A stretch of DNA of 36,233 bases from a virus: IMG/VR virus record IMGVR_UViG_3300025393_000055; one strand, written 5' to 3'. The translations under genes were made by a program, and so were the position numbers. The notes under the pieces are model-generated. The model was not told the DNA's origin and made no database searches. It saw only the letters and a list, made by a program, of their open reading frames with translations. Positions 1,025 to 35,232 of this stretch are shown piece by piece (the first letter of the stretch is position 1; the number at the start of each line of letters is the position of its first letter).

Positions 1025-1054
1025 TGCATGTGCAGAAAAATGAGGTGTAAAATG
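1025..1054 (+). promoter_or_regulatory. TGCA-TG-TGCAG palindrome followed by double-AAAATG leader/RBS
   Basis: TGCATGTGCAG-AAAAATGAGGTGTAAAATG directly before ATG 1052. Confidence 0.7.
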
Positions 1055-1537
1055 GCAAAGGTCATCAATGTCAACGGATTCACCATGGAGCCCGGTCTGC
1101 TGACTTACAACGGGAAGCGGTACCAGTTCATGACAGTCGGGCAGGACAAGAAAACGGTCCAAGACTACGTGAAGACACTCCCCCCTGACAAACAGAAGAG
1201 CATCGTGATCGCCAACGAGGACCTGACTCACTACTCGGTCTATGGGCGGAAGAATCCCAAAGTACCCCGTCTGAACATGATCGAGGTGAAGACTCCGGTC
1301 AAGCTCGCCCGATTAAATCCCTTCAGATTCAGGTACGGGGGGCACGAGTACAAGAAGACCTATGGGGACGGGCTGACCAGCTTCGCCCGATCCCCTGCGG
1401 AGGCGAAGGGGAATATCATGCACTACTACGGCGACCTCCTGCCGAAAGACCGGCACGGGCGCTTGGAGCCATACAATGAGTTCCTGATCGTCAAAGTGCT
1501 CGACAACCAGTTCTCGGTGTTCTGTCCCCTAAAATGA
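1052..1537 (+). CDS. Basic protein with two FDGK-like repeats
   Basis: Start placed at the leader motif; TYNGKRYQF...YSVYGRK and RYGGHEYKK...FSVFCP; stop TGA is supplied by the next leader (AAAATGA). Confidence 0.75.
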   Translation: MAKVINVNGFTMEPGLLTYNGKRYQFMTVGQDKKTVQDYVKTLPPDKQKSIVIANEDLTHYSVYGRKNPKVPRLNMIEVKTPVKLARLNPFRFRYGGHEYKKTYGDGLTSFARSPAEAKGNIMHYYGDLLPKDRHGRLEPYNEFLIVKVLDNQFSVFCPLK

Positions 1538-1547
1538 GGTAAAAATG
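1531..1547 (+). promoter_or_regulatory. Conserved leader AAAATGAGGTAAAAATG (type copy of about 27)
   Basis: Other copies or variants end at ATGs 1052, 3365, 4487, 4816, 9422, 12163, 13403, 19601(-), 22323, 24271, 24750, 25032, 25184, 25429, 26436, 26708, 27172, 27732, 28022, 28880, 29199, 29465, 29661, 29895, 31160, 34630, 34942. Confidence 0.9.
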
Positions 1548-1817
1548 GGAAACAGTCGTAGAAAAGATGGCCTTCGCTTTGCCCCGTATCGGACATTCGG
1601 TGACCGCCAGTATTACCTTCTCGGTTCGTCCTTTGACAAACGGGAAGCAGAGAGAACAAAGGAACGGGCAAAGATCCAAGGATCTCTGGTCCGGGTTGTA
1701 CAAGCCTCCGTTGAGGGAAGGCCCGCGTATCTGACATATGTGTTCCGCCGGGTGAAAAACCCCGCGGCAAACCCTGCGGGCCAGCAGAAGGCAGACCGGC
1801 TGAACCGGGGGCGGTGA
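1545..1817 (+). CDS. Small basic FDGK-family protein
   Basis: RTFGDRQYY...DKREAERTKERAKIQGSLVRVV...YLTYVFRR; leader motif upstream. Confidence 0.75.
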   Translation: MGNSRRKDGLRFAPYRTFGDRQYYLLGSSFDKREAERTKERAKIQGSLVRVVQASVEGRPAYLTYVFRRVKNPAANPAGQQKADRLNRGR

Positions 1818-2037
1818 TCCCCCGATGATGCCCCCCAAAACTCCCCTCAAGTTCGCGCTGATGGCTTCAGGTCTCACCAAAGCGGAGGCCGAAGCCCTCC
1901 GAAAGCGATACAAGAGGCATGGTGCCCGGTACACCCAGGTCAAGAAGAGTCCCTACGGCGGCTACGACCTCCGGGTGGGGGTTCGCCCCCTCGGCCCCGG
2001 GGGGCAGGGCGGCCTGCAGATCATCCTGACGGAGAAC

Positions 2038-2271
2038 GTCAACTACCCCCGGTTAAAACCGGGGGCCTGCAAACGGCTACGCGGGACCAAACAGTAGACT
2101 AGGAGGCAAGAAATTGCAGCAGCGTTACGGGCTACAAGAACGGCAGAGTGTTTCCCTAGCTCTGCCCTCTTCCGGGCACGCCGAACCCGACGTACCTCTC
2201 TGGGTACTAAGCCTGTCTCGCACCTCCGAAGGGAAATGCAACCCCGGCTCGACCGGGAGAAAGGGAATACC
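2038..2271 (+). ncRNA. omegaRNA scaffold of IsrB
   Basis: About 230 nt non-coding interval between element end and PLMP start, with the GTCAACTACCCC 5' end typical of IscB/IsrB loci; exact ends inferred. Confidence 0.7.
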
Positions 2272-3344
2272 ATGAGAGTTCCGGTTCTGGATTCTCACAG
2301 GACGCCGTTGATGCCAGCTACGCCAGCACGAGCTCGCCTGCTCCTCAAGCAGGGGCGGGCAAAGCCGTACTGGAACAAGATCGGTATCTTCTGCATCATC
2401 CTGACCTACGAAGTACAGCCTGACAACCAGGATCTGGTTGTCGGGATCGACCCCGGCAGTTCCTTTGAGGGCTGGTCCGTGGTCGGCACCAAAGAAACCG
2501 TCTTGAACGGTATGTCGGAGACCCCTAAACATATCAAGAAAGCCGTAGAAACCCGAAGAACGATGCGAAGAGCCCGGCGGGGCCGGAAATGCTGGCGCCG
2601 CCCGGCCCGGTTCAACAACCGGCTGAGAAACAAGACCTCCCTCCCCCCGAGCACATTTGCTCGGTGGAACGCCAAAGTACGGATCCTCGACCAGTTGCGG
2701 AAGGTTCTCCCGATCACCGCCGTGGTCGTAGAGGATGTCGCGGCGGTGACGAAGAAGCACTGCAAACGGTGGAACACGAACTTCTCGCCCCTTGAGGTCG
2801 GGAAGCAGTGGTTCTACCGGACGATCCGGGGTCTGGGGCTCACCCTGCACCTGCGTACCGGGTACGAGACCAAAGCCCTCCGGGACCGGTTCAGCTTGAA
2901 GAAGACAAGCCAGAAGAGCAAGCCGGTCTTTGCCGCTCACGCGGTCGATGCCTGGGTGATGGCCGCTGACGTATCGGGTGCGGAGCGCCCGACCGAACGG
3001 GGGTTGTATTACTGGACGCCGATCCGGTTCTTCCGGCGGCAGTTGCACCGGCTCCAGCCGGAGACCGGCGGGATCCGGAAGCCCTATGGGGGAACCCGGT
3101 CTCTGGGGCTCACCCGGGGAACGCTGGTCCGGCATATCAAGCACGGGCTGACATACATCGGAGGCACGTTGAAAGGAAAGGTGTCGTTGCACAGTGCGGT
3201 CACCGGGAAGCGGGTGACTCAGAGCGCAAAGGGGGAGGACTGTACCCCCTTAACCCGTATCGCCTGGAGAACAACAAGGTATGCCGGGATAGGCAGACGG
3301 CATTCCTCCCCCGGTTTAAACCGGGGGTCTCCTGCCTGTTCCTT
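2038..3344 (+). mobile_element. Non-autonomous IS200/IS605-superfamily IsrB element
   Basis: Begins GTCAACTACCCC; matching end hairpins CCCCCGG-TTAAAA-CCGGGGG (2046-2065) and CCCCCGG-TTTAAA-CCGGGGG (3308-3327); no tnpA. Confidence 0.8.
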
Positions 3345-3348
3345 ATGA
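2272..3348 (+). CDS. isrB: IsrB RNA-guided nickase (IscB family lacking HNH), 358 aa
   Basis: PLMP N-terminus, RuvC-I GIDPG, Arg-rich bridge helix RRTMRRARRGR, RuvC-II VVEDV, RuvC-III HAVDA; no HNH between RuvC-II and III. Confidence 0.85.
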   Translation: MRVPVLDSHRTPLMPATPARARLLLKQGRAKPYWNKIGIFCIILTYEVQPDNQDLVVGIDPGSSFEGWSVVGTKETVLNGMSETPKHIKKAVETRRTMRRARRGRKCWRRPARFNNRLRNKTSLPPSTFARWNAKVRILDQLRKVLPITAVVVEDVAAVTKKHCKRWNTNFSPLEVGKQWFYRTIRGLGLTLHLRTGYETKALRDRFSLKKTSQKSKPVFAAHAVDAWVMAADVSGAERPTERGLYYWTPIRFFRRQLHRLQPETGGIRKPYGGTRSLGLTRGTLVRHIKHGLTYIGGTLKGKVSLHSAVTGKRVTQSAKGEDCTPLTRIAWRTTRYAGIGRRHSSPGLNRGSPACSL

Positions 3349-4452: not shown

Positions 4453-4486
4453 GAAAAAGTGCAAGTGTAGGAAAATGAGGTGAAAA

Positions 4487-4753
4487 ATGGCAACGTATCT
4501 ATCATCAAAAGACGCGAAATGGGTCAAAAAACTCACAGAGGATGAGATTGAAAACCTTGTACGTATTGGGTTCGGTCAACCCAAATTCTACCGGCCAGAG
4601 GTCTGGAGGAAGGCAAAACGGGTAATGATCATTGCCTGTTCTTTGGGTCTTGCTGAACCTTTTGATTTCGGGCGGGGGAAAGGAAAGTACCTCACCGATC
4701 TGAGTTACTCGGATGTGGTTTCAGGCATTCTCAAAGCACGAACCCGTCTTTGA
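4487..4753 (+). CDS. Hypothetical protein
   Basis: Leader AAAATGAGGTGAAAAATG; 88 aa ORF. Confidence 0.7.
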   Translation: MATYLSSKDAKWVKKLTEDEIENLVRIGFGQPKFYRPEVWRKAKRVMIIACSLGLAEPFDFGRGKGKYLTDLSYSDVVSGILKARTRL

Positions 4754-4845
4754 GGGGCCGCGAGTAGGTATATTGGAGTATCCTTGGCCAAAAAGAGCCT
4801 AAAATGAGATGAAAAATGACCGTAAAAGAGATCGCAAGATTCTAC

Positions 4846-6158
4846 CTCTGCGGGGTTGAAGGGGCAGAGCGGGAGGGCTCCCTCCGCAAGGGGGGAGGTG
4901 AGAGCGGGCCCCCTTCTTCACTTTCACCCCGCACGGATATTGTTTATGCTGGAGGGGGGCCAATATGATCCTATCGTATGCTGCGAAGGTACCAGTACCG
5001 GCTGTATCCGACGAAGGATCAGGAGACCCTGATCGCCAAGCACCTTGGATGTTGCCGGTTCGTGTACAACTGGGCTCTCGCCCGCAAGAACACGGCGTAC
5101 CACGGCGAGGGGCTCAGCCTGTCCCGGTACGACCTCACGAACCAGCTTCCGGCCCTCAAAGAGGAGTTACCGTGGCTGAAAGAGGTCAACGCCCAGTCTC
5201 TGCAGCAGTCGATCATCCATCTCTCCCGTGCGTTCACGAACTTCTTCGAGGGCCGGGCCGAAGAACCGACCTTCAAGAAGAAGCACGATCCCGAACAGGC
5301 GTTCACGGTTCCGCAATCCTACACCGTGGACTTCGGGCGGGGTACCGTGAAACTCCCGAAGATCGGGGCGGTCAAGGTCAAGTACCACCGCACCTTCGTG
5401 GGTACGACGAAGTCTGCAACCGTCATCCGCAAGTCCACGGGTCGGTACCTGATCAGCATTGTGGTCGAAGACGGCCGGACGCCGCCGAAGCCCGCCGATC
5501 CGATCCTGGATCAGACGGTCGGGATCGACCTGGGTCTCTCGCACTATGCCGTCCTCTCGACCGGGGAAAAGGTGGCGAATCCGAAGTATCTCAGGAACGC
5601 CCAGGTGCGGCTGGCCGTGCTCCAGCGCCGGCTCGCCCGCAAGCAGAAGGGGTCGAAGAACCGGAACAAGGCTCGACTCAAGGTGGCCCGGTGTCACCAG
5701 AAAATTGCCGATCAACGCAAGGACTTCCAGCACCAGCTCTCTTCTCGACTGGTCCGCGAAAACCAAGCCCTGGCTGTGGAGTCCCTGAACGTGGACGGCA
5801 TGGTGAAGAACCCCAAGCTGGCAAAGGCGATCAGCGATGCTGGATGGGGTACGTTCCTCGGAATGCTGGCGTACAAGTGCCGGGAGGCGGGGAAGACCCT
5901 GCTGAAGATCGGGGTCTTCGAGCCGTCTTCCAAGACCTGCTCGGTCTGCGGCTACCGGAAGGCCGACCTGACGCTGAAGGACCGGGAATGGACATGCCCG
6001 GACTGCGGGACGACCCACGACCGGGACCTGAACGCCGCGATCAATATCAAACACTTCGCACTAGCAGGCGCGGAACGCGCCGAAGAGCCTGTGGACCCGC
6101 TCCCGATGGGGAGGGGGATGAAGCAGGAAGCCCCCTGCGTAAGCGGGGGGTAGTTCAC
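4846..6158 (+). mobile_element. IS605/IS1341-type tnpB-only element
   Basis: Left end follows TCTAC; right-end hairpin CCCCCTGC-GTAA-GCGGGGGG then TAGTTCAC; left end also present at 33769; clean in-frame empty site. Confidence 0.88.
4978..6153 (+). CDS. tnpB: TnpB RNA-guided endonuclease
   Basis: YRLYPT N-terminus, GCCRFVYN, RuvC-I GIDLG, RuvC-II VESL, Zn finger CSVC/CPDC, RuvC-III HDRDLNAAINI. Confidence 0.95.
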   Translation: MLRRYQYRLYPTKDQETLIAKHLGCCRFVYNWALARKNTAYHGEGLSLSRYDLTNQLPALKEELPWLKEVNAQSLQQSIIHLSRAFTNFFEGRAEEPTFKKKHDPEQAFTVPQSYTVDFGRGTVKLPKIGAVKVKYHRTFVGTTKSATVIRKSTGRYLISIVVEDGRTPPKPADPILDQTVGIDLGLSHYAVLSTGEKVANPKYLRNAQVRLAVLQRRLARKQKGSKNRNKARLKVARCHQKIADQRKDFQHQLSSRLVRENQALAVESLNVDGMVKNPKLAKAISDAGWGTFLGMLAYKCREAGKTLLKIGVFEPSSKTCSVCGYRKADLTLKDREWTCPDCGTTHDRDLNAAINIKHFALAGAERAEEPVDPLPMGRGMKQEAPCVSGG

Positions 6159-7648: not shown

Positions 7649-9331
7649 ATGACCGAGAAAATGCCTCTCAAAAATGCACTAGAAATGCACATCCGGGCGA
7701 AATACCCCCTGATCTGCATCGAAACGCACGAGGAGCCTCGTGTGGTTCAGATCCTCGCGGAGACCGCGGGCCCGGCTGGCCTGAACCGGAGCCTCCTGTA
7801 CTGGTCCGTGACCCGGGGCCTCCTCGACCTGACCCAGAACCTTCAGGAGATCGCCTCTGGCGAGATGAAGGTCCTTGAAGGGCGGGGGGTCCTCGTCCAG
7901 AAGACCCCGGAAGGCCTCTACGAGATCATCAGGGGCGAGCCCACACCGGGTCCTGCTGACCCCTACCAGATCCTTGAGGACATCGGCCGGTACCCAGAGC
8001 CCGGGATCTTCGTCCTCGCGGACTACCACCAGTATCTCCGGGAGCAGAACCCGGACCCGATCACCGTCAGGAAGGTGCGGGACCTGTTTGCGGATCTCAA
8101 GGACACCCGGAAGACCATCATCATGATCTGCCCCCGGCTCAGCCTCCCCGGCGACCTCGAGAAGGAGATCACCTACCTCGACCTCCCGCTCCCGAGCCGG
8201 GACGAGCTCGGCGCGATGCTGGATCAGGCCGTCGCGGAGATCCGGGAGATCGCGGAGGAAGGGAACGAGCGGACCCGGGAAGCCCTGGCGGTCATCGAGC
8301 CCCAGCTTGCTGACCGGGACAAGATCGTGGAGGCCGGGGCGGGCCTCACCCGGGCCGAGTGGGAGAACGTCATCGCGAAGTGTTTCGTCTCCCGCCGGCT
8401 GGAGACCAGCCTCATAAATCAGGAGAAGCGCCAGATCATCAAGAAAGGCGGCCTCTTAGAGTTCTTCGAGACCCCCGAAAGCATGGCCAGCGTCGGCGGG
8501 CTCGCGAACCTGAAAGCCTGGCTCACGAAGGCCAAGCTTCGGTTCACCCCGAAGGCCAAGGCGTTCGGCCTCACCCCGCCCCGGGGGATCCTGCTCGTCG
8601 GGCCGCCGGGCACCGGGAAGTCCCTCGTTGCGAAGGTCGCGAGCCACGAGCTCCAAATCCCCGCCCTCCGGCTCGACATGAGCATGATCGCGAGCAAGTA
8701 CTACGGGGAGACCTCCAATAATATCAGAAAAGCCCTCGATATGGCCGACGCGGTCGCTCCGGTCGAGTTCTGGCTGGACGAGGTGGAAAAGATGTTCGCC
8801 TCGGGCCAGGGGGGTACCGGCGGGCATGAGGAGACCATGCGGTCCCTCGGCGCAGTCCTCACGCACTTTGAGGAATCGACCCAGCCGGTCTTCCGGATCG
8901 CGACCTGCAACCAGATCCAGAACCTGCCGCCGGAGTTCATGGCGCGGTTCGAGAAGGTCTTCTTCGTGGACCTCCCGAACCATGCCGAGCGGCAGGAGAT
9001 CTTCGCGATCCACCTCCGGCAGGTGGGCCGGGACCCGGCGGGGTTCGACCTCGCCGCCCTCGCGGCCGCGACCGAGCGGTTCGTCGGCCGGGAGATCCGG
9101 AACCTCGTCCAGGAGGCCCTGCAGACCGCCTTCTACGAAGGGGTCGAGGTCACCACCGACCACCTGATCGTGGAGTCAGCGAAAGTTACGCCGATCTTCT
9201 CGCAGAAAGAGGACGAGATCAATGCCCTCCGCGAGTGGGCGGCAAAGAACGCGGAACCTGCCTCGGCGGTCGTCGCGGCCGAGCCCGCGAAGGCGAACAA
9301 GGGCAAGGGGCGGCGGGGGGTCGAGTTCTAA
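7649..9331 (+). CDS. Ycf46-like AAA+ ATPase
   Basis: IRAKYPLICIETHEEPR N-domain; VGGLANLKAWL; Walker A GPPGTGKS; Walker B WLDEVEK; PPEFMARFEKVFFVDLP; start inferred at 7649. Confidence 0.9.
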   Translation: MTEKMPLKNALEMHIRAKYPLICIETHEEPRVVQILAETAGPAGLNRSLLYWSVTRGLLDLTQNLQEIASGEMKVLEGRGVLVQKTPEGLYEIIRGEPTPGPADPYQILEDIGRYPEPGIFVLADYHQYLREQNPDPITVRKVRDLFADLKDTRKTIIMICPRLSLPGDLEKEITYLDLPLPSRDELGAMLDQAVAEIREIAEEGNERTREALAVIEPQLADRDKIVEAGAGLTRAEWENVIAKCFVSRRLETSLINQEKRQIIKKGGLLEFFETPESMASVGGLANLKAWLTKAKLRFTPKAKAFGLTPPRGILLVGPPGTGKSLVAKVASHELQIPALRLDMSMIASKYYGETSNNIRKALDMADAVAPVEFWLDEVEKMFASGQGGTGGHEETMRSLGAVLTHFEESTQPVFRIATCNQIQNLPPEFMARFEKVFFVDLPNHAERQEIFAIHLRQVGRDPAGFDLAALAAATERFVGREIRNLVQEALQTAFYEGVEVTTDHLIVESAKVTPIFSQKEDEINALREWAAKNAEPASAVVAAEPAKANKGKGRRGVEF

Positions 9332-9358
9332 CCCCCCTGCCTCTTTCGGAAAGGGTAA

Positions 9359-9424
9359 ATAGGATGACCGATAATATTCTGTTACTGACCTGCATGTGCA
9401 GGTTAAAATGGGTGATTTAAAATG
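9359..9424 (+). promoter_or_regulatory. Second operator block plus double-AAAATG leader
   Basis: ATAGGATGACCGATAATATTCTGTTACTGACCTGCATGTGCAG-GTT-AAAATGGGTGATTTAAAATG. Confidence 0.55.
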
Positions 9425-9811
9425 AGCCACATAACCACCATCAAGACCAAAGTCGTCCTGAAGGACGAGTCCCTCCTCCGGGAGGTCCTGGCCGGGATGC
9501 AGCGGACCCTGCCGGGGTTCACCATCGAGCAGTCCACGAACAAGCAGGGCGACCGGCAGATCCTCGTCCGCTACGCCCCCATCGAGACGTTCCAGAAGAA
9601 CGGCAACCTCCGGTTCGTCCTGAAGGACGGGGCCTGGCAGATGCAGGGCGACGACTACAAGTGCTGGAATGAGTTCAAGGCCGTCACCGACCAGGTCCTC
9701 GTCGGCTACCAGCAGGCCGCCCTCCAGCGGGTGCTGATCCGGAACCGCTACTCGACCACGGCGCAGGCGTTCTCCCCATCCTGCGTCACGATGCACGCGA
9801 GGAGGTTCTGA
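9422..9811 (+). CDS. DUF1257 (Ycf35-like) protein
   Basis: MSHITTIKTK...LLREVL N-terminus and position after Ycf46-like AAA. Confidence 0.75.
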   Translation: MSHITTIKTKVVLKDESLLREVLAGMQRTLPGFTIEQSTNKQGDRQILVRYAPIETFQKNGNLRFVLKDGAWQMQGDDYKCWNEFKAVTDQVLVGYQQAALQRVLIRNRYSTTAQAFSPSCVTMHARRF

Positions 9812-9813
9812 CC

Positions 9814-10029
9814 ATGGCCGAAGAGTACGAGATCGAGATCACCCCGCAGGGCATCAGGCTCGACGCCAGGGGGTTCCAGAACAAGGCCTGCCTGAAAGAA
9901 CTCGCGGAGATCGAGCGGATGCTCAAGGACCTCGGCATCGAGACCACACTTGGAGACCAGAAGCTCAAGCGCGAGGCGATGCTCGCGGACAACACCCCGC
10001 AGACTACTCGGCGGGAGGTGCGGCGATGA
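9814..10029 (+). CDS. DUF2997-like protein
   Basis: IEITPQGIRLDARGFQNKAC...IERML; canonical neighbour of DUF1257. Confidence 0.7.
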   Translation: MAEEYEIEITPQGIRLDARGFQNKACLKELAEIERMLKDLGIETTLGDQKLKREAMLADNTPQTTRREVRR

Positions 10030-10229
10030 TCCCGATCATCTCCACCCCGCCGGAGGAGGCCGCCCGCTACCTCGGCACCGGTCTCCCGACCGAGCTGAAC
10101 GCTCAGGTCGGCCCGGACGCCCTCACCCTCTGGGCCGACTACCCCTACGACGAGCCGGCCCTCCTCGCGGAACTCGCGGCCCTCGGCATCGAGGTGGCGC
10201 AGCCGCCCCAGTTCTCCCCCTGCGGGTGA
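10026..10229 (+). CDS. Hypothetical protein
   Basis: Overlap-coupled ORF ending FSPCG. Confidence 0.6.
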   Translation: MIPIISTPPEEAARYLGTGLPTELNAQVGPDALTLWADYPYDEPALLAELAALGIEVAQPPQFSPCG

Positions 10230-10891: not shown

Positions 10892-10927
10892 GGGGCGGGG
10901 CTACCCCCCGCTCGCCTGGGGGGCCCG

Positions 10928-25154: not shown

Positions 25155-25183
25155 AGGCTTGATCTGAAAAAATGAGGTGAAAA

Positions 25184-25414: not shown

Positions 25415-25428
25415 AATGAGGTGTAAAA

Positions 25429-25833
25429 ATGACAAGACCTACTGAACGACTGGGTCGGGATTACGGCCCGTTCGAGGGTGTCCGCATACTCACCATGAAC
25501 GGTGTCCGGCTGTACATCGTGAACAAGCAGGCCGCGACGGAAGCAAACCTTAAGGACCACGATCTGATCCCGCTCGGCGGCGGGAAGTATGCCCACACCC
25601 TGGGGCTCACCCGCGACAAGCTCTACCGGGCGGCCGGCTACGATGTCAACAAGATCGACTTCGCGGTCCCGCAACCCTGGTATGACCTGCCCGAGAACCA
25701 TGCCCGCCGGAAGAAGGGGGACCGGGCCGTCTGGTCCTACGCGGGGCGCAGGAACACCTTCGGGAAACCGATCTGGGACTCCGAGGCGCGGAAGCGGCTC
25801 AAGACCCGGATCAACCAGCGGCTGAGGCGGTGA
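25429..25833 (+). CDS. Basic hypothetical protein
   Basis: Leader motif. Confidence 0.7.
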   Translation: MTRPTERLGRDYGPFEGVRILTMNGVRLYIVNKQAATEANLKDHDLIPLGGGKYAHTLGLTRDKLYRAAGYDVNKIDFAVPQPWYDLPENHARRKKGDRAVWSYAGRRNTFGKPIWDSEARKRLKTRINQRLRR

Positions 25834-26420: not shown

Positions 26421-26435
26421 CAATGGAGGAGTAAA

Positions 26436-26681
26436 ATGGCAACCAAACCACAGGAGATAGGCGGGTACCTCGCTGATGGCGGGGTGCTCACGGATTGGAA
26501 CGGGAAGAAGATCGGCACCTACCGGCTCATCGCCTCCTGGAAACTGCCGAACATGTACATATCGGATCGGATGTTCCAGGTCGAGGCCATCGTCAACGGC
26601 GTAACCTACACCGGCCGGAGTGCCGGGGTCGGGATGGCGTACCGAGGAAAGCGAAAGAAAACCCCACCCCGGGGACGGTGA
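26436..26681 (+). CDS. Small hypothetical protein
   Basis: Leader variant CAATGGAGGAGTAAAATG. Confidence 0.7.
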   Translation: MATKPQEIGGYLADGGVLTDWNGKKIGTYRLIASWKLPNMYISDRMFQVEAIVNGVTYTGRSAGVGMAYRGKRKKTPPRGR

Positions 26682-26707
26682 CCCCGGCAGTAAAAATGAG
26701 GTAAAAA

Positions 26708-27142
26708 ATGCAACGCAAACCAAGCAGCAAGGCAACCCCCCCGAAGGCGAGGTCCTCGATCCCGGTCATCCCGGCCATGCGAGGATTCTCGTTTCTCACC
26801 GGGGACGTAAACTGGAAAGAGTACGGCGGAACCTTCTACCGGAGCTTTGGGGACGGAACCTACGCCCTCATTGAGTTCATCAACCTCGAAGATGCTGTCA
26901 GGTATGGGGGGATCCGGGGGAACAGGTATGCGGCCGTAGGACGAACCGTGGACCTCTCGCCGGGAGGGTTCTCGCTGAGAAACCTCGATTCAGCCCTCCG
27001 CACCATCGGGGCCTCTCCCGCGACCCGGAACCCCAAGGTTCTCCTCGATGCGGTGAACGCCTACGGGTCATTTGATGTTGACTTCGAGATCTTCGGCAAC
27101 AATGCCGACAAGCTCCTGGCCGCGGCGAAACGCCGGTACTGA
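26708..27142 (+). CDS. Hypothetical protein with basic N-terminal tail
   Basis: Leader motif. Confidence 0.7.
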   Translation: MQRKPSSKATPPKARSSIPVIPAMRGFSFLTGDVNWKEYGGTFYRSFGDGTYALIEFINLEDAVRYGGIRGNRYAAVGRTVDLSPGGFSLRNLDSALRTIGASPATRNPKVLLDAVNAYGSFDVDFEIFGNNADKLLAAAKRRY

Positions 27143-27143
27143 C

Positions 27144-27174
27144 CTGCATATGCAGTAAAATGAGGTAAAAAATG
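27144..27174 (+). promoter_or_regulatory. Perfect palindrome CTGCATATGCAG fused to leader
   Basis: CTGCATATGCAG-T-AAAATGAGGTAAAAAATG fills the whole intergenic gap. Confidence 0.7.
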
Positions 27175-27717
27175 GATCAGTCATCATCCGCTCTCAGGAT
27201 CCTTGAGAAGAGCAAGCGAGAGAAGGAGTTCCGGGTTTCGCGAGACCACCTCTACTACTTTGCGGGGGAGTACTACTACAAGCGCGATGCCGAAGACACC
27301 AAGAACGCCCTGAAAAAGGCAGGGTATTCGGTACTGATGCGGAAAGGCCCTCGCCAGTCTGACGGGTACCAACTCCATGCTCGGAAGGTCAAAGCGACTT
27401 CTGAAGACAAAGCGAACCCCCTGTATAGGGGAAACCGGGTGGTAGAGGTCACGCTTGAATCCGCTCGGCCCCCCATCTGGACCGTCACGCTCATGCACAC
27501 CGCAAAGAATGGCGAGTACCGGAGAGATTACTCTAAATCCGCTGGTGAGTACACCCGATACCATGACGGCCCCTCTATCACCCCTGCGGTCACAGAGGCA
27601 AAGCGTCTGGCGAAGAAATGCGGGAAAGGAACCTACGTTGTCATCTACGGTGCGACCTCAGCAGAGACGTTGCAGTGGGATGGAACGCGGTTCGTGAACC
27701 TGAAACGGGCCCCGTAG
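27172..27717 (+). CDS. Protein with FDGK-family-like N-domain plus second domain
   Basis: YYKRDAEDTKNALKKAGYSV...YQLHARK; leader. Confidence 0.75.
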   Translation: MDQSSSALRILEKSKREKEFRVSRDHLYYFAGEYYYKRDAEDTKNALKKAGYSVLMRKGPRQSDGYQLHARKVKATSEDKANPLYRGNRVVEVTLESARPPIWTVTLMHTAKNGEYRRDYSKSAGEYTRYHDGPSITPAVTEAKRLAKKCGKGTYVVIYGATSAETLQWDGTRFVNLKRAP

Positions 27718-27731
27718 AATGAGGTGAAAAA

Positions 27732-27992
27732 ATGCCCTGGAACAAAGATGGCACGTATGTGCCGGTACCCGATGACCGGACCTTCGACGGCAAGCGGTTC
27801 TCCCTCCTGTGGGTGACCGGGTTCAGCTCGAAGCGCCGGGCAGAACAGACAAAGAACGCCCTCAAAGAGGGGGGGAGCAAGCCCTACAATGTGCGGATCG
27901 TTCCCTATGATGGAGGCTACTACCTCTACACCGCTCCGCGGGTGACCCGGGAAGACTCCCAGTGGTTGATCCAGCGGATCGGGGGGCTCTGA
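27732..27992 (+). CDS. FDGK-family protein
   Basis: RTFDGKRFSL...SKRRAEQTKNALKEGG...VRIVPYDGGYYLY. Confidence 0.8.
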   Translation: MPWNKDGTYVPVPDDRTFDGKRFSLLWVTGFSSKRRAEQTKNALKEGGSKPYNVRIVPYDGGYYLYTAPRVTREDSQWLIQRIGGL

Positions 27993-28021
27993 AGGGGCCC
28001 CCCAGAAAAATGAGGTGAAAA

Positions 28022-28336
28022 ATGGAGTTCAAATCACTCGAACAATTATTCGAGGAGAACAACGGCCGGACGGTCGTCATGGACCGCCGGAAGTACTGGG
28101 TTCGGTACATGCGGTACCGGGGCGGCGAGGACATCTGGCTGGAACCCGTCAACAAGGACGCCCCGTGGTACCGCAAGATGCGGGACTACCTGGGCGATGA
28201 CTGGGTCACGGACGCGAAGCACCTTGAGGGCAAGGCCTTTAGCGAGGTCTACCGGCAGCTCGCCTGGAAACAGCCCTCGACACCCAGCCGCAAGGCGACG
28301 ACCTCGCGGAAGAAGGCCCCGGCCCGGAGGCGCTGA
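28022..28336 (+). CDS. Hypothetical protein with basic C-terminal tail
   Basis: Leader; ends SRKATTSRKKAPARRR. Confidence 0.7.
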   Translation: MEFKSLEQLFEENNGRTVVMDRRKYWVRYMRYRGGEDIWLEPVNKDAPWYRKMRDYLGDDWVTDAKHLEGKAFSEVYRQLAWKQPSTPSRKATTSRKKAPARRR

Positions 28337-28817: not shown

Positions 28818-28879
28818 GATCGGGCAGGTATCGACTGAAGAACACCGTAAAAATGTGAGTAAAAAGGAAGTCCGTAAAA

Positions 28880-29149
28880 ATGGCAAAGAGTCCGTTCACC
28901 ACAGCAACCCTCACCTATATGGTGAAGGGCAAGGTACAGTCCAAGAAAATCCCGATCCCGGCCCAGCGTCATGCCCTCGGGATCCTGAAACAGCGAGAAG
29001 GGTATGTTGAGATCTGCTGGTTCAAGGTGCCTCCCGCGGTAGGGGGGTACCAGGAGGACAACTTCAAGACCAAGGTCGTGCGGGTTCCCATGGATGCCGG
29101 GCTCGCCAGCCTGAAGGTCGGCGGCCGCGTGATCTCCAAGGCCACCTGA
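28880..29149 (+). CDS. Small basic hypothetical protein
   Basis: Extended leader variant. Confidence 0.7.
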   Translation: MAKSPFTTATLTYMVKGKVQSKKIPIPAQRHALGILKQREGYVEICWFKVPPAVGGYQEDNFKTKVVRVPMDAGLASLKVGGRVISKAT

Positions 29150-29198
29150 ACCGCGTGCAGAACATCGTTAAAATGTGATCAAAAGGAGGACCAGAAAA

Positions 29199-29411
29199 AT
29201 GGCAAACATCAAGTACGACCGGTCGCGGAGCAAAATCTTCAACGGCACGCCGTATTTCTTTTACAAGCAGGCTGACGGCCGGGTCAACGGCCGGAACATC
29301 GTGAACCGGCTCCGGGGCATGGGCTTCTCGGCCCGGATGACCGTGAACCAGGGGAAGAACACCGGCGGCTGGCCGGTCAAGGTCTACAACATCTGGCTCA
29401 GGGAGCGGTGA
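29199..29411 (+). CDS. FDGK-family protein
   Basis: KIFNGTPYFF...RLRGMGFSARM...VYNIWLRER; GGAGG RBS. Confidence 0.75.
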   Translation: MANIKYDRSRSKIFNGTPYFFYKQADGRVNGRNIVNRLRGMGFSARMTVNQGKNTGGWPVKVYNIWLRER

Positions 29412-29436: not shown

Positions 29437-29467
29437 CTGCATGTGCAGAAAAATGGAGGTTAAAATG
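29437..29467 (+). promoter_or_regulatory. CTGCATGTGCAG palindrome + leader
   Basis: CTGCATGTGCAG-AAAAATGGAGGTTAAAATG. Confidence 0.7.
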
Positions 29468-29623
29468 TCTCGAATCTTTGATGGAAAGACCTTCCGAGAG
29501 GCGACCGCGGCCCCGACCCGGGCCTCGGCAGAGATCGTTGCCGCCGAGTGGCGCAACAATGGATGGAACGCCCGCGTGGTGAAGAAGAAGCACTCCTACA
29601 CGATCTACGTGCGGAGGAAGTAA
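29465..29623 (+). CDS. Minimal (52 aa) FDGK-family protein
   Basis: MSRIFDGKTF...TRASAEIVAAEWRNNGWNARVVKKKHSYTIYVRRK. Confidence 0.8.
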   Translation: MSRIFDGKTFREATAAPTRASAEIVAAEWRNNGWNARVVKKKHSYTIYVRRK

Positions 29624-29660
29624 GGGCCGGTTGCCCTGACGTTAAAATGGAGTCCGAAAA

Positions 29661-29870
29661 ATGATGCTCAAATACTCAACCCTCTACGAGGTCCCGCCCT
29701 ACCGGGCGTGGCGGATCGCGTTCTACAACTCCCAGTACACCTACCTGTTCTTCGGAACCAAGGAGGACGCGAAGGCCGCAGGCCAGAAGCTTGCAGACCA
29801 GCTCGCAAAGAAGGGTAAGCTCGTCTCGAATATGTCGATCAAAGAGGTCTCCAAGTACCTGGGGAAGTGA
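29661..29870 (+). CDS. Small basic protein
   Basis: Leader; FGTKEDAKAA motif. Confidence 0.7.
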   Translation: MMLKYSTLYEVPPYRAWRIAFYNSQYTYLFFGTKEDAKAAGQKLADQLAKKGKLVSNMSIKEVSKYLGK

Positions 29871-29894
29871 CCCCCCCAAAAATGAGTGAGTAAA

Positions 29895-30173
29895 ATGGCA
29901 CGAGTTACCAAAGCCCTGCTGGAGGGCATGACCAAAACCGTGGGGCGGCTCTACGGCTATCCTACTGTGGGTGAACCTGCCCCCCAAGGCTCAAAGAACC
30001 GTTATAAGAAGGCCTTCCTGATGCTGTCCGCAGATCAGTACTACAATCTGATGGTCGTCCAGAAGGACGGCAGCTGGACCGAGTTCGGCGGCTCCCGGCA
30101 GTACACCGCCTCAGAGATGGAGGTCTACCTCAAAGGACTGATCGACGGCAAGACCCACCAGAAGCGGCGGTGA
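29895..30173 (+). CDS. Small hypothetical protein
   Basis: Leader AAAAATGAGTGAGTAAAATG. Confidence 0.7.
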   Translation: MARVTKALLEGMTKTVGRLYGYPTVGEPAPQGSKNRYKKAFLMLSADQYYNLMVVQKDGSWTEFGGSRQYTASEMEVYLKGLIDGKTHQKRR

Positions 30174-30971: not shown

Positions 30972-31159
30972 TGCGCAAGGCCCGCCGGGCCTGAGCCCCC
31001 AACCTCCTCTTTTCTCCTCCTCCCGGGTGCAAACCAGAACCTATATATTGGATAACCGACCAATCTCTGTTTCGAGGCCTCCCGGAGAGCCCCGGGCGGC
31101 CGGAATACCGCCGGGAAACCCTGCGTTCCCCGGCACCAAGTGAAAAATGGAGCGTTAAA

Positions 31160-31537
31160 ATGAGTGGAATACCAATAGCAGGGGAGACCTGCTGTGCAAA
31201 CTGCGTCTCTGACGCCACCTGTTCGCACCGGTCGGATCTCCCCGGAATCGCACTGATCTGCGACCAATTCTTGAATCGAACCTTCCCTCCAGAAGTGCAG
31301 GACGAGATCCGGGCCGGGGACCGCTGTCACATCTGCGGAGCCCCCGCGATCATCGGCGGCGGGGGGCGGCTGACCTGCGGAACCTGTCTCATCGCCCAGG
31401 CCGCGGCGAAGGTCAGGATCGGGAACAAGGCGATCCGGGAGTGGCTGGGAACCGTCGCGATCGTCCCGGTTCCCACGGGCGACGCCGGGGCCGACCCCGA
31501 CGACATTCCCGAAGAGGACGAAGAGGAGGCCCTCTGA
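31160..31537 (+). CDS. Cys-rich zinc-finger protein with acidic tail
   Basis: CCANC...C, CHICG...CGTC; leader. Confidence 0.65.
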   Translation: MSGIPIAGETCCANCVSDATCSHRSDLPGIALICDQFLNRTFPPEVQDEIRAGDRCHICGAPAIIGGGGRLTCGTCLIAQAAAKVRIGNKAIREWLGTVAIVPVPTGDAGADPDDIPEEDEEEAL

Positions 31538-32046
31538 TGGCGCTCCAGATCTACACGGACGGCGGGTTCCGGGCGACGGCCGGCGGGGTCGGCGGCTGGG
31601 CGTATCTGTTTGTGGACGACCGGCAGGGCCAGATCGGGTCCGACGCCGGGGTCCTGGTCACCGATACCCCGGCCGGAGGCGAGTACCTCGCGATCATCAA
31701 GGCCCTCCGGGCGGCCCGGGATGCCGGGCACCGGGAGGTCGCGGTCTACAACGACTGCACGGGCGTGGTCAACCAGCTCGCCGGCCGGGCAGGGGTCGCC
31801 TCCCCCCGGATCCTCCCGCACTACCAGCGGGCGGCCGAGCTCCTCGCGGACTTCGATGTCGCGACCGTCGCCTACGTCTCCCGCGACCACCCTCACATCC
31901 AGGCCGCCGACGCCCTCGGCTGCGAGGCGGTCGCCCGGCGCACCGGGGCCGGGTTCCCGGTGCGGTGGTGGCACAAGAGCAACGCCGGGGCCCCGCAGGG
32001 CTGGCGGGCGGCCCGGGCGGTGCCCGCGGCAGAGGGGTGGGGATGA
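31537..32046 (+). CDS. Ribonuclease HI family protein
   Basis: IYTDGG, GEYLAIIKAL, VYNDC, VVNQL, VSRDH..AADAL: D-E-D-D tetrad. Confidence 0.85.
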   Translation: MALQIYTDGGFRATAGGVGGWAYLFVDDRQGQIGSDAGVLVTDTPAGGEYLAIIKALRAARDAGHREVAVYNDCTGVVNQLAGRAGVASPRILPHYQRAAELLADFDVATVAYVSRDHPHIQAADALGCEAVARRTGAGFPVRWWHKSNAGAPQGWRAARAVPAAEGWG

Positions 32047-32381
32047 TGGTTGACCTCACCCCGGCCGAGGCCGGGATCTGTCTCCTCGCGATCGTCAAGG
32101 CCGAGTTCGCTGCCGGGTGGGATGGTACCCCCCGCCCGTGGGGCGCCGCCTCCCGCGGGATGATCACCCGGCTCCTCGCGAAGCTCGGCATCCCCGACAC
32201 CGAGGTCCTCACGCTCGCCTGCCCGGTCTGCGGGAGGGTCCAACGGGTGGACCGGACGGCCTATCTCGACAACATCGCGATCGGCGGCCACCCCTACACC
32301 TGCGGGGGAGCGGCCTGCCCGGGCCATACCGTCATGCGGGTTGTTCCCAGAGAGGAGATCCTGCGGGAGGAGGCCGAATGA
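32043..32381 (+). CDS. Zinc-ribbon hypothetical protein
   Basis: CPVCG...TCGGAAC. Confidence 0.6.
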   Translation: MMVDLTPAEAGICLLAIVKAEFAAGWDGTPRPWGAASRGMITRLLAKLGIPDTEVLTLACPVCGRVQRVDRTAYLDNIAIGGHPYTCGGAACPGHTVMRVVPREEILREEAE

Positions 32382-32575
32382 CCTCCTGGTGGCCGCGGCT
32401 CTGGCACTGCGGCCTCAAACTCTGGTGGAACCGGCTCTGGGTCCGGGCCGACGAGTTCCACCCATCGCTCGACCTCGATCTGGCCGCCATGGAGGCGATG
32501 ACCGCCCCGGAGCGGGCCGCATACCTCCGCGACCTCTTCCGCCGGCGCGAGATCGCCCACCGGAGGTCGTTATGA
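32378..32575 (+). CDS. Small Trp-rich protein
   Basis: ATGA coupling both ends; LWVRADEFHPSLDLD. Confidence 0.65.
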   Translation: MTSWWPRLWHCGLKLWWNRLWVRADEFHPSLDLDLAAMEAMTAPERAAYLRDLFRRREIAHRRSL

Positions 32576-32958
32576 GCAACGTCCCGGAGGCCCTCGCGGC
32601 CCTCGAGCACGAGCAGTGGATAGCCTGGTCGAAGAGCCTTGCCGCAGCAGAACCCCTCTCCGCGGAGCGGGTCGAGCGGTGGCGGGGGCTCTGGGTGCCC
32701 TACGCGGACCTCTCCGAGCAGGAGAAGGATGCCGACCGGGTCTGGGCCGAGAAAGCCCTCGCCATCGTGGCCGACCCCCTGGCATCCGCCCTCACCCTCG
32801 AGTACCGGGAGTGCTGCCGCCGCCTCGCGGACCCGGCCCTCCAGAACCCGCTCTGGTGGCTCGGCTACCGGTGCGGGATCGAGGACCTCGTCGCCCGGCT
32901 CGCGGAGAAGGGGATCGCGGTCACGCTCCCCTCCCCGGCCACGAGGAGGGATCGGTGA
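32572..32958 (+). CDS. RyR-domain-like protein
   Basis: LAALEHEQW...LWVPYADLSEQEKDADR. Confidence 0.6.
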   Translation: MSNVPEALAALEHEQWIAWSKSLAAAEPLSAERVERWRGLWVPYADLSEQEKDADRVWAEKALAIVADPLASALTLEYRECCRRLADPALQNPLWWLGYRCGIEDLVARLAEKGIAVTLPSPATRRDR

Positions 32959-33143
32959 TGGTGACCTGGAAGCAGGTGATCGAGCGGCACGGGGCAGACC
33001 TGGCCGAGAAGATGGTCGCGACCGGGCTCCTGGACGGGATCACCTGTGTCCTCCTCCCCTCCGGGGAGGCCGACATCCCGCAGTGCGACATCGACCGGGC
33101 ACTCCGGGCGGTGCGGGGGTTGCCGGTCCACGACTGGGACTAA
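32958..33143 (+). CDS. Small hypothetical protein
   Basis: GAGGAGG RBS, TGATG coupling. Confidence 0.6.
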   Translation: MVTWKQVIERHGADLAEKMVATGLLDGITCVLLPSGEADIPQCDIDRALRAVRGLPVHDWD

Positions 33144-33148
33144 AAAAC

Positions 33149-33160
33149 CTGCATGTGCAG
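33149..33160. promoter_or_regulatory. CTGCATGTGCAG palindrome
   Basis: Intergenic, followed by AAAA. Confidence 0.6.
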
Positions 33161-33181
33161 AAAACAAAGGAAACTACAGAA

Positions 33182-33508
33182 ATGTCCCTGTATAATGCCA
33201 TCAACGGGCGGCACCCGAAGAGCAAAGAGATCCTCGCCCTCCTCGACCTGACCGAGGAGGAGATCGAGCGGTACCGCGACTGCCGGGTCTTTCCCAAGAC
33301 GAGGACCATCGAGATCCTCGCCCGGACGGGCGGGGGGAACCGCGAAGACTATCCGAACACGGCGCTCACCGCCCATCCCGGCTACGTCAGCGACCGGGAC
33401 GCGAACTTTGACGGAACGTATACGGTCTACACCATCCGAGTTCCCGATGCGGTCCCGGCGACGGCCCTCCAATCTCTGGACAAAGGAACCCGCTGGGGGG
33501 AGGGGTAG
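33182..33508 (+). CDS. Hypothetical virus-type protein
   Basis: RYRDC...ARTGGGNREDY...HPGYVSDRDANFDGTY. Confidence 0.7.
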   Translation: MSLYNAINGRHPKSKEILALLDLTEEEIERYRDCRVFPKTRTIEILARTGGGNREDYPNTALTAHPGYVSDRDANFDGTYTVYTIRVPDAVPATALQSLDKGTRWGEG

Positions 33509-33510
33509 CC

Positions 33511-33980
33511 ATGTGCCGGAACGCGATCCTCCATCACCGCGACGGGTCCGAGACCGTCTGCCGGTGCCAGGCTGACCTCCAGCAGGCGATGCCCCGGGGG
33601 ATCTGGTTCTTCCCCCCGGCCGGTGAGCCCGACCTCGAGAGAGGCGGCTTCGAGCCGGGGGTCTGCCTCTGCCCGGTCGATCTCGAGCGCACGGCCCGGG
33701 CGAACGGCTACCGCCTCTCGCGGCAGGGGCCGGACGGGGTCGAGGACGTCTTCGACGACCACCTCTACCTCTGCGGGGTTGAAGGGGCAGAGCGGGAGGG
33801 CTCCCTCCGCAAGGAGGGAGGTGAAAGCGGAGCCCCTTCTTCACTTTCACCCCGCACGGCCCACCTTAATGCCATAGGAGGACCAATATGATCGTATCGT
33901 ATCGACCACGGGCGGACGGGATCGGTGAGGTCCCGGCCGAGAACGGGCTGGAAGTCCGGGTCGCCGGAGGCCAGCCATGA
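33511..33980 (+). pseudogene. Cys-containing gene interrupted by tnpB-element left end (33511..33768 + 33903..33980)
   Basis: Removing 33769..33902 gives ...DDHLY-RPRADGIGEVPAENGLEVRVAGGQP*, whose stop overlaps the next ATG. Confidence 0.6.
33769..33902 (+). mobile_element. Orphan left-end remnant of the tnpB element
   Basis: First 91 nt match 4846..4936 with 4 substitutions; also preceded by TCTAC; similarity ends at the tnpB start codon. Confidence 0.85.
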
Positions 33981-34237
33981 GCCGCCGGGATCTCATCGGG
34001 ATGCTCGCCGGCGGGGCGATCCTCGCCTTCAGCGTCTGGGGCCTCCTCGGCGGGTTCTCCACGCCGGAGGCGAAGGCCTTCCTGCTCCTCGACGGCCTGA
34101 TCGGGCTCTACATCGTCGCGAAGGCGACGGAACGCCTGCTGGCCACCCGGTTCCCCCCGCCGCCGCCCTTCGTGGACGAGAACGCCGATCCGTGGGAGGA
34201 CGAGCCCGCGGACGAGGACGAGGAGGTGTCCCCGTGA
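33977..34237 (+). CDS. Two-TM membrane protein, acidic tail
   Basis: Hydrophobic segments; ATGA coupling. Confidence 0.65.
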   Translation: MSRRDLIGMLAGGAILAFSVWGLLGGFSTPEAKAFLLLDGLIGLYIVAKATERLLATRFPPPPPFVDENADPWEDEPADEDEEVSP

Positions 34238-34476
34238 ACCGCCTGCTCCATGGTCTGATCCTGGCGGTATCTCTGGGCTATTTCCTCATCTCTGATGGTG
34301 AGAACCTCCTCCTGAGCCTCCTCTTCGCCGTCGCTCTCCTCAACAGCCTCCTCACACTCTTCGTTCTCATCTGGATCAAACCCGGGTCCGGGCAGGAAAC
34401 CCTGCACCAGACCCTCCTCCGCGAAGAGGAGGAGTGGTGGCAGGCCCGTCTGGCCGCCAGGAGGGGTCAGCCGTGA
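34234..34476 (+). CDS. Two-TM membrane protein
   Basis: GGAGGTG RBS, GTGA coupling. Confidence 0.6.
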   Translation: MNRLLHGLILAVSLGYFLISDGENLLLSLLFAVALLNSLLTLFVLIWIKPGSGQETLHQTLLREEEEWWQARLAARRGQP

Positions 34477-34619
34477 CTCTGCCTCCCCGGTGCCGCCGGG
34501 TGATCGCGAGGGTCCTGGCCCGTCCCGCCGCCCCGGACCCCGAATGTGCCGCAGAACAGTATGTCGAACGGGTCCGCCGAACCCTGGAATACGGCGAAAC
34601 GCTTCTATCGAAAAAATGA
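34473..34619 (+). CDS. Small hypothetical protein
   Basis: GTGA coupling; stop inside the next leader. Confidence 0.45.
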   Translation: MTLPPRCRRVIARVLARPAAPDPECAAEQYVERVRRTLEYGETLLSKK

Positions 34620-34629
34620 GGGATGCAAA

Positions 34630-34911
34630 ATGCAGTACTACCAGATCCACCCTGACCTGATGCGCCTTGTTGCCGACTATGTCATCGCCGCCGGGCTCCC
34701 CGTCCGGTGCCGGCCGCTCTGGATCGCCCGCGACCTCGAGGAGACCCACGGGGCCGAGACCCTCGAACGGCTCCGGAGCACCCAGACCCTCAAGACCTCG
34801 GTCCAGCTCTGTCTCAAGGCGCTCGGCTATGTCAGCGAAGGCGTCGCTGGCGACCGGGTCTGGATCCGGGAAGACCGGCTCCAGCAGAACGCGGCCCTGG
34901 TCGCGGCGTAA
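34630..34911 (+). CDS. Hypothetical protein, possible winged helix
   Basis: Leader variant; helical N-part then LKALGY...VW. Confidence 0.6.
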   Translation: MQYYQIHPDLMRLVADYVIAAGLPVRCRPLWIARDLEETHGAETLERLRSTQTLKTSVQLCLKALGYVSEGVAGDRVWIREDRLQQNAALVAA

Positions 34912-34941
34912 CCCCTACTGACCTCTAAAATGTGGTGTAAA

Positions 34942-35232
34942 ATGGAAGAAGTTCTAATCTACGGATTTTCCAGCGACCTCCTGGTCCTGGACGGGGCGGT
35001 ACGGGAGGAGATCCCGGTCGCCTGTGGTGAGCAGATCGATCTCGCATTCACGGACGGCACCGTCCTCCGGGCGGGCTACGGGCTTCAGGGCCCTGAATGC
35101 TGGCAGATCGACCGGGTCGCGGCCGGGTCGGCGCAGTACGAGCGCCGGGCGGCCACCGACCCGAAGACCGACTACTCCGATGTCATAATCCTGACCGGAG
35201 AGCACCTCGCCCTGCAGGGGGTCCCGGCATGA
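34942..35232 (+). CDS. Hypothetical protein
   Basis: Leader AAAATGTGGTGTAAAATG. Confidence 0.7.
   Translation: MEEVLIYGFSSDLLVLDGAVREEIPVACGEQIDLAFTDGTVLRAGYGLQGPECWQIDRVAAGSAQYERRAATDPKTDYSDVIILTGEHLALQGVPA

Follow-up and report, generated by a model that had tools for sequence, protein, structure and literature searches.

Introduction

Short repeats placed directly before start codons are known from cluster K mycobacteriophages, in which the 13 bp start-associated sequences (SAS) occur in 11-19 copies, 3-7 bp before starts; each unites a Shine-Dalgarno (SD) core with conserved non-pairing bases, is not in the host and in about half of the cases has an inverted repeat on its 5′ side, and their function was open as of 2025 (PMC3203893; PMC12699233). 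In T4-type phages a second repeat, the promoter-early stem-loop (PeSL), marks sites of gain, loss and replacement of ORFans (Arbiol et al. 2010, PMC2839356; PMC4122927). Here we describe a repeated leader in the virus record IMGVR_UViG_3300025393_000055, the whole 36,233-nucleotide stretch of which is called the window below and is treated as a putative virus- or plasmid-like element of the archaeon Methanoculleus. The leader consists of AAAATG, an SD core of the GAGGTG/A type, an A-run and the start ATG of a gene; it spans 18-20 bases and is oriented with the gene.

SAS are the closest described system to this leader, followed by PeSL. Like SAS, the leader is a short asymmetric repeat present in many copies and one orientation a few bases before starts (mostly ATG for SAS). 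Its SD core is joined to a conserved upstream AAAAT that, judged by the general archaeal anti-SD, is probably non-pairing. In both systems the upstream gene's stop codon sometimes falls inside the repeat, and the repeat stands before genes of different families, SAS mainly in the non-structural part of the genome. Both are essentially missing from the host (here 0 in 83.5 kb and 0/44 genes), and both have a subset with an inverted repeat just 5′ (the ESAS of cluster K), although the palindrome found here differs from it in sequence and size. The leader consensus is, however, unrelated to the SAS sequence GGGATAGGAGCCC, being 18-20 bp and A-rich rather than 13 bp and G+C-rich, and the leader is therefore an analogue and not a homologue. 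It differs further in its archaeal host, in holding a second copy of the start-codon context, and in being a joint of cassette re-assortment, a property undescribed for SAS in the literature compared.

With PeSL the leader shares its position as a repeated expression signal before ORFans in variable (hyperplastic) regions; differences between related genomes fall at the repeat, and a shared regulatory sequence is proposed to provide both expression and a safe site for recombination. Whereas PeSL is a conserved interval of ~100 bp that includes a sigma-70 promoter together with a terminator hairpin, the leader has 18-20 bp and neither of these, which identifies it as a translational signal. PeSL mini-circles have been demonstrated.

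Three other systems are comparable in part. The intergenic repeats of halovirus HF2 (Russ et al. 2021, PMC8707807) are likewise AT-rich repeats of a G+C-rich archaeal virus that are conserved among relatives, but they measure 29 and 58 bp and have proven promoter activity, whereas the leader runs right up to the start codon, so that a TATA box at the right distance has no room. Termination-reinitiation (Huber et al., PMC6728339, PMC10666635) offers the same ATGA and TAA-N-ATG layouts of the upstream stop with the first ATG. As in engineered bicistronic designs, a short frame contains the SD and ends a few bases before the real start; in the leader, however, neither that frame nor the first ATG is conserved, and most upstream stops are too distant. 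Integron attC arrays are also one-directional and promoter-less, with cassettes that re-assort at a repeated boundary, but the leader lacks their hairpin-forming imperfect palindrome, tyrosine integrase and fixed crossover point. The leader is best placed with the start-associated or mobile regulatory leader sequences, as an archaeal variant of these.

Little is known of the viruses and plasmids of methanogens, and work on their translation signals is scarce. The leader offers a ready-made and putatively strong initiation signal for methanogen genetics, and in metagenomes it is a simple marker for the accessory-gene arrays of this element family. It is also an unusually clean natural case of one short sequence coupling expression to gene exchange, a coupling suggested for T4 PeSLs and still undecided in the case of mycobacteriophage SAS, and a testable case for what holds the non-pairing bases beside an SD constant.

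Results

A repeated leader heads about one quarter of the genes

A search of the window with the 18-mer consensus, allowing up to three mismatches, returned 15 matches where shuffled sequences predict 0.00. The AAAATG hexamer is found 55 times on the plus strand and three times on the minus strand, against 3.2 predicted by base composition. An initial annotation of the window had proposed that a double-AAAATG leader heads about 27 genes, and the count bears this out, with 23 canonical leaders (including a single minus-strand copy, 19599-19617) and four degenerate or extended ones (13387, 26421, 28849 and 29170). These make up roughly one quarter of the ~100 genes predicted by a self-trained gene call. 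All 27 copies share the orientation of their gene and end in its start ATG. Pattern matches at 7661/7674, which lie inside the ATPase gene, and at 14353, a single gene start only, were rejected as leaders. The copies are listed below with the reading from the first ATG, where noted.

1036-1054, plus strand: gene 1052-1537; first ATG in the frame of the gene; palindrome of the CTGCA-N2-TGCAG type directly 5′
1531-1547, plus strand: gene 1545-1817; Met-Arg-stop; upstream TGA overlaps the first ATG (ATGA); homology to relative L003 ends here
4472-4489, plus strand: gene 4487-4753; Met-Arg-stop; degenerate palindrome 5′
4801-4818, plus strand: gene from 4816; AGA replaces AGG with Met-Arg-stop retained; gene broken by the TnpB element at 4846
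9405-9424, plus strand: variant with a GGTGA-type SD; gene 9422-9811; palindrome directly 5′; first frame of five codons
12145-12165, plus strand: variant with a GGAG-type SD; gene 12163-12486; M-E-stop
13387-13405, plus strand: degenerate, second A-run broken; gene 13403-13684
19599-19617, minus strand (the sole such copy): gene 19601-19353; first ATG in the frame of the gene
22308-22325, plus strand: 12-codon frame 22323-22361; Met-Arg-stop; TGA of the frame overlaps GTG 22358 of a 214-aa gene
24256-24273, plus strand: canonical; gene 24271-24546; Met-Arg-stop; homology breakpoint and joint in related contigs
24733-24752, plus strand: gene 24750-25019; upstream TAA enters the A-run; breakpoint in five relatives
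25018-25034, plus strand: gene 25032-25154; Met-Arg-stop; a different gene behind the leader in related contigs
25167-25186, plus strand: canonical; gene 25184-25414; Met-Arg-stop; gene seen behind four different upstream partners
25413-25431, plus strand: extra T; gene 25429-25833; first frame of nine codons, out of frame
26421-26438, plus strand: degenerate (short first A-run, GGAGGAG SD); gene 26436-26681; three codons then stop; breakpoint in several relatives
26692-26710, plus strand: canonical; gene 26708-27142; Met-Arg-stop
27157-27174, plus strand: canonical; gene 27172-27717; Met-Arg-stop; perfect 12-bp palindrome directly 5′
27716-27734, plus strand: first A-run broken by G (upstream TAG); gene 27732-27992; Met-Arg-stop
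28006-28024, plus strand: canonical; gene 28022-28336; Met-Arg-stop; orthologue in L119 has a canonical AGGAGG SD with the first ATG gone
28849-28882, plus strand: extended; gene 28880-29149; AAAATG box (M-stop), then a separate SD and A-run
29170-29201, plus strand: extended; gene 29199-29411; M-stop
29449-29467, plus strand: GGAGG SD; gene 29465-29623; in frame; palindrome directly 5′; the same upstream flank joins three different genes
29644-29663, plus strand: variant; gene 29661-29870
29878-29897, plus strand: variant; ATG at 29895; M-S-E-stop
31143-31162, plus strand: variant; gene 31160-31537; M-E-R-stop
34611-34632, plus strand: variant; gene 34630-34911; upstream TGA overlaps the first ATG
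34927-34944, plus strand: variant with TGGTG; gene 34942-35232; in frame

Conservation was counted over 46 distinct leader-headed gene starts from the window and its relatives. The three bases before the first ATG are each A in 43-46 of the 46 leaders; of the five positions that follow it, the first is mostly A (33/46) and the next three are G, G and T in 37-43. Spacing from ATG to ATG is 10-15 nt, commonly 12, and reaches 26 nt in the extended forms. The 46 starts are represented by 72 distinct upstream variants, 67 of which keep the box and two of which keep the ATG behind a broken A-run; the three that have lost the first ATG carry ACG, a canonical AGGAGG SD in its place, or no box at all.

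The genes behind the leader are mostly unrelated ORFans, mostly without paralogues, and matched no significant Pfam family (two weak matches fell below the curated cut-off). Spread of the leader by paralogy was rejected, as only two of the seven BLAST-detectable paralogues of the FDGK family have a leader. A role for A-run length as a hypervariable tuner was also rejected (only 2/21 repeatedly seen junction types vary), as was promoter function, since, with the leader directly against the start codon, there is no space for a TATA box at the proper distance.

The leader is a discrete unit specific to the element

To compare starts blind to the motif, every plus-strand GAGGTG or GAGGTA in the window was taken. 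All 13 such sites followed by an A-run and ATG were preceded by AAAAT (once AGAAT), whereas all six at G+C-rich starts were preceded by G-rich sequence and never by the leader box. No intermediates between leader starts and GC-type starts were found among these plus-strand sites; the leader is a discrete unit and not part of a gradient. The predicted mean unpaired probability over positions -18 to +5 was 0.62 at leader starts versus 0.43 at other starts of the window (p = 1.2e-7), with a local G+C of 0.31 versus 0.60. The leader, predicted to be unstructured, lacks dyad symmetry.

The host was sampled as 83.5 kb of non-redundant Methanoculleus chromosomal loci, fetched around shared TnpB genes. 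No leader was found on either strand of this DNA or before any of the 44 genes called in it, so that a leader equally frequent before host genes, the outcome the initial annotation had named as damaging to its proposal, was not seen. AAAATG occurs at 0.14 per kb in the host sample versus 1.60 per kb in the window. Within the limits of the 83.5-kb sample, the leader is specific to the element. Host genes for ribosomal proteins, aIF2/5B and TFB have ordinary upstream regions. The SD context of the host thermosome gene (L109, 4077 region) shares ATGAGGTGA with the leader, without the A-runs and without the double hexamer, and the leader core may copy a strong native SD of this type.

Gene cassettes re-assort at leaders

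The RNA evidence consists of contigs from metatranscriptome runs, which carry no transcript ends, strand or expression level, and parts of the window not covered by them are uninformative. In four metatranscriptome libraries, the match between the window and contigs of related strains breaks off precisely at leaders, after which the contigs run on into leader-like sequence and another gene. Three RNA runs share a joint that leads from the leader end at 25035 back to 24270. With an array protein, nine metagenome contigs were found that are crowded with leaders (one has 29 copies of AAAATG on the plus strand and none on the minus strand), and they align to the window in blocks that are bounded by leaders and differ in order. 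Positions no more than 12 nt from canonical leaders, 2.9% of the window, account for 16 of the 36 distinct BLAST breakpoints, and four more lie at degenerate leaders. Ten further contigs with an identical 134-aa array protein showed several gene orders and duplicated cassettes within one contig; across 20 related metagenome contigs, small ORFan genes occur in changed order and in duplicate, every joint being made through a single intact leader.

When flanks were analysed, 191 leader instances resolved into 70 junction types, which combine 54 kinds of upstream with 50 kinds of downstream flank. On each side, 12 flank types have more than one partner, with one gene start found behind six upstream flanks, and each junction holds one intact leader. 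Polymorphisms within the leader travel either with the downstream gene or with the upstream flank, which puts the crossover 5′ of the SD in some cases and 3′ of it in others. Such a variable crossover point fits homology-guided exchange better than a site-specific recombinase. In the relatives L115/L125 (a 7.1-kb contig), L127 and L119, the same small cassettes stand twice within a few kb, in orders unlike that of the window, and the array thus grows by duplication besides exchange.

The proposition that adjacencies break only at leaders did not give a clean result; most of the variable junctions scored as leaderless had degenerate leaders. Single-linkage clustering of whole cassettes over-merged families, and gene-level and flank-level analyses were used instead. 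Assembly chimeras are unlikely, because independent samples, different assemblers and the RNA libraries all yield these alternative junctions again and because the repeat, at no more than 22 nt, is shorter than the assembly k-mers, which from contig names and the practice of Logan are assumed to be k 31, k119-k141 and those of SPAdes. Among the functions that the initial annotation had offered for the extra AAAATG, a nucleic-acid-level role as a recombination anchor is plausible and has direct comparative support, in the form of breakpoints and re-assortment at leaders.

Discussion

A proposed translation-initiation junction that doubles as a homology patch

On balance, we favour a model in which the leader is a portable translation-initiation junction that also acts as a homology patch for cassette shuffling. 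As RNA, it would present a 7-base SD core between two A-runs, 4-9 bases 5′ of the AUG, as an island of ~30% G+C within a genome of 62% G+C. Such an open SD site would allow initiation by ribosomes inside long polycistronic transcripts that carry small accessory genes, and the stop codons of the leader would also terminate the upstream gene in nearly half of the junctions. As DNA, it would be the sole sequence common to otherwise unrelated cassettes, and recombination between copies would swap, duplicate and re-order these, in turn keeping the copies alike. The first ATG would be part of the conserved block and not a working start. In this model the leader would raise translation, homology would drive the exchanges instead of only outlasting them, and concerted evolution would account for the constant first AAAATG.

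Several observations weigh against this model. In 69 of the 72 upstream variants the first ATG still has its T and G, while the spacer from SD to start is more variable, and neither SD pairing nor a need for unstructured RNA accounts for their retention; judged by the general archaeal anti-SD, the earlier claim that the SD does not explain the extra AAAATG holds. Concerted evolution, use of the TGA as an upstream stop (A directly follows the first ATG in 33/46 leaders, making a TGA available to the upstream gene) and recognition by a factor are possible reasons for this constancy. One highly expressed host gene, that for the thermosome, has a partly similar SD context, and the 83.5 kb of host sample is less than a whole genome. 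Breakpoints at gene borders are expected from selection for intact genes alone; as nearly every border in the array has a leader, cause and consequence are inseparable here. Finally, 18-20 bp is a short substrate for homologous recombination.

Alternative explanations

The first alternative, which we consider improbable, is that two AAAAUG/AAAATG half-sites around the SD form an operator, bound by an RNA- or DNA-binding protein that is encoded by the element, perhaps among its many small basic proteins, and that switches the accessory genes together as a regulon. T4 RegA, a repressor of early mRNAs whose A-rich sites take in the AUG, would be a model for such a protein. An operator would explain why the first AAAATG is kept far beyond the need for SD pairing and why the leader, a direct repeat of the same hexamer, is a discrete unit not seen in the host sample; a subset of copies, moreover, has a 12-bp palindrome directly 5′, as ESAS accompany SAS in cluster K phages. 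Half-sites at a spacing that varies over 10-15 nt, and up to 26 nt in extended forms, fit an operator poorly, as do the three natural variants without the first ATG, and no candidate binder emerged. We likewise doubt the more ambitious proposal that a bipartite operator or a context-independent bicistronic relay makes the leader a dedicated plug-and-play standard for expression and exchange in the trade of ORFans; no description of such a system in archaea was found in the literature searched.

Less likely still is a ribosome relay, in which the ribosome that ends the upstream gene restarts at the first AUG, reads Met-Arg, stops within the SD and restarts 3-5 nt further on. This layout resembles engineered bicistronic designs. 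In 31 of the 46 leaders a frame of up to three codons ends just 5′ of the start (28 of two codons and three of three), whereas in the other 15 the first ATG is in the frame of the gene (seven) or runs on out of frame (eight), so that the frame is, as the initial annotation had said, not strictly conserved. The stop that ends Met-Arg is a TGA or TAA within the SD core itself, and Met-Arg-stop arises because the core GGTGA/GGTAA holds an in-frame stop at the commonest spacing. With 15 leaders lacking a short frame and three variants lacking the first ATG, the short frame is neither conserved nor indispensable, and it looks like a by-product. No SD precedes the first ATG, and natural variants with ACG, with AGG or without a box exist.

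The position of the upstream stop bears on the relay in both directions. Stops lie within the leader in 26 of 61 junctions (window and relatives), in agreement with the claim that they are often inside the motif, and all three frames are used (TAA entering the A-run in 11, TGA over the first ATG in six, a stop in the SD in nine). Closure of all three frames was rejected as a defining property, since it is found in 22/65 leaders only, though this is far more than the 2.9% of composition-matched shuffles. In 21 of the 61 junctions the stop is no more than 3 nt from the first ATG or overlaps it as ATGA, consistent with the very short distances that archaeal reinitiation requires (PMC10666635), but in the remainder, the majority, it lies 8-53 nt before it, and in 28/61 it is more than 20 nt from the gene start. 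Reinitiation in Haloferax falls by 60% at 13 nt and is abolished at 22-23 nt (PMC10666635); if this limit is valid across genera, most leader-headed genes would be initiated independently, a need that fits a strong and open SD site. Leaders also stand behind putative promoter palindromes, where no upstream ribosome arrives.

Relisting of the double copies found the frame details of the initial annotation correct throughout: Met-Arg-stop before 1545, 4487, 4816 (with AGA), 22323, 24271, 25032, 25184, 26708, 27172, 27732 and 28022; M-stop (28880, 29199), M-E-stop (12163) or three codons and a stop (26436, 29895, 31160); and a first ATG in frame with the gene at 1052, 19601, 29465 and 34942. The gene placed at 22323 does have a Met-Arg-stop leader, but this heads a 12-codon frame only, the real 214-aa gene starting at GTG 22358. 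The TGA of frame 22323-22361 overlaps that GTG (GTGA), a classic layout for reinitiation coupling. Overall, the box outside the SD, the unconserved frame and the plausibility of a recombination anchor held up, whereas the Met-Arg-stop micro-ORF (open reading frame) as a general relay was not supported, with 15/46 leaders lacking a short frame, no SD of its own and only about one third of upstream stops near enough for reinitiation.

Just as doubtful as the relay is the view that the leader is a plain ribosome-binding site with no further function, copied along with duplicated genes, its first AAAATG a neutral passenger. The first ATG can indeed be lost, and ordinary SDs serve the more distant relatives of 50% and ~43% G+C. 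Duplication is, however, at odds with leader-headed genes that are mostly unrelated, and neutrality with a box kept in 67 of 72 variants despite flanks and coding sequence diverged to 88-92% identity or beyond recognition; nor are there intermediates between the leader and GC-type starts. It is very improbable that the leader is the crossover site of an integron-like system using the two serine recombinases at 19915-21125. In favour of this, the genes lie divergently, with ~1-3 kb to the beginning of an array of small promoter-less cassettes that all point one way and re-assort cleanly. The leader, however, lacks the dyad symmetry normal for serine recombinase sites, the crossover point is not fixed and there are leaders at a distance from the array (1-12 kb and 31-35 kb).

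The element, its relatives and associated features

The 36.2-kb window has 62% G+C, and on its coding strand A strongly outnumbers T. Relatives of its AAA ATPase gene (7649-9331) on metagenome contigs are 80-98% identical, and one of these contigs is labelled Methanoculleus. TnpB (4978-6153) has 91% identity to a chromosomal TnpB of Methanoculleus bourgensis, which ties the element to that host. In more distant relatives the ATPase module neighbours genes for a family B DNA polymerase, ribonucleotide reductase and dUTPase. More distant relatives, with 50% and ~43% G+C, have mostly ordinary SD sites, and the full leader is thus a trait of the high-G+C lineage.

DNA runs with the element family come from activated-sludge, wastewater, bioreactor and anaerobic-digester metagenomes in 13 studies. 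A megablast search of a phage collection with 25 kb of the window gave zero matches, and Rfam, run over the whole window, returned nothing that reached the gathering score. The exact 18-mer occurs in 99 IMG/VR contigs, always as single chance-like copies, with the element family itself absent from that collection as searched. A 2.6-kb contig (L001) that is 82% identical to window positions 8167-10816 is binned in a metagenome-assembled genome labelled Patescibacteria; it is probably a mis-binned fragment of this element family.

The TnpB element (4846-6158) interrupts the leader-headed gene that starts at 4816. Relative L003 (8118-8387) has an uninterrupted 89-aa version of this gene, and its homology stops at 4845. 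The two serine recombinase (resolvase) genes at 19915-21125, next to the main cassette array, are the only recombinases in or near the window.

The conserved core operons (9814-13107 and 31537-34619) are almost free of leaders. Their genes start in overlapping or abutting positions (-4, -1 and +2 nt), with G+C-rich SDs located within the upstream gene. With leader-headed genes beside GC-type starts of this kind, two styles of translation start exist in one element.

On the opposite strand, each leader reads as two T-runs of 4-9 bases. Oligo-T tracts terminate archaeal transcription, and leaders could, judging from these runs, stop antisense transcripts while sparing sense transcription.

A 12-bp palindrome, CTGCA-N2-TGCAG, occurs nine times in the window, at 1025, 7619, 9391, 14269, 23287, 27145, 29438 and 33150 and, in degenerate form, at 4460; with one mismatch allowed, the pattern has 26 strand matches against 3.8 expected. 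It stands 0-4 nt 5′ of the leaders at 1036, 9405, 27157 and 29449, with the degenerate copy at the leader at 4472. The palindromes at 7619 and 33150 lie ~20 nt before genes that start operons (7649 and 33182). Some copies have an AT-rich, TATA-like sequence ~20 nt upstream, and the palindrome may be an operator at promoters.

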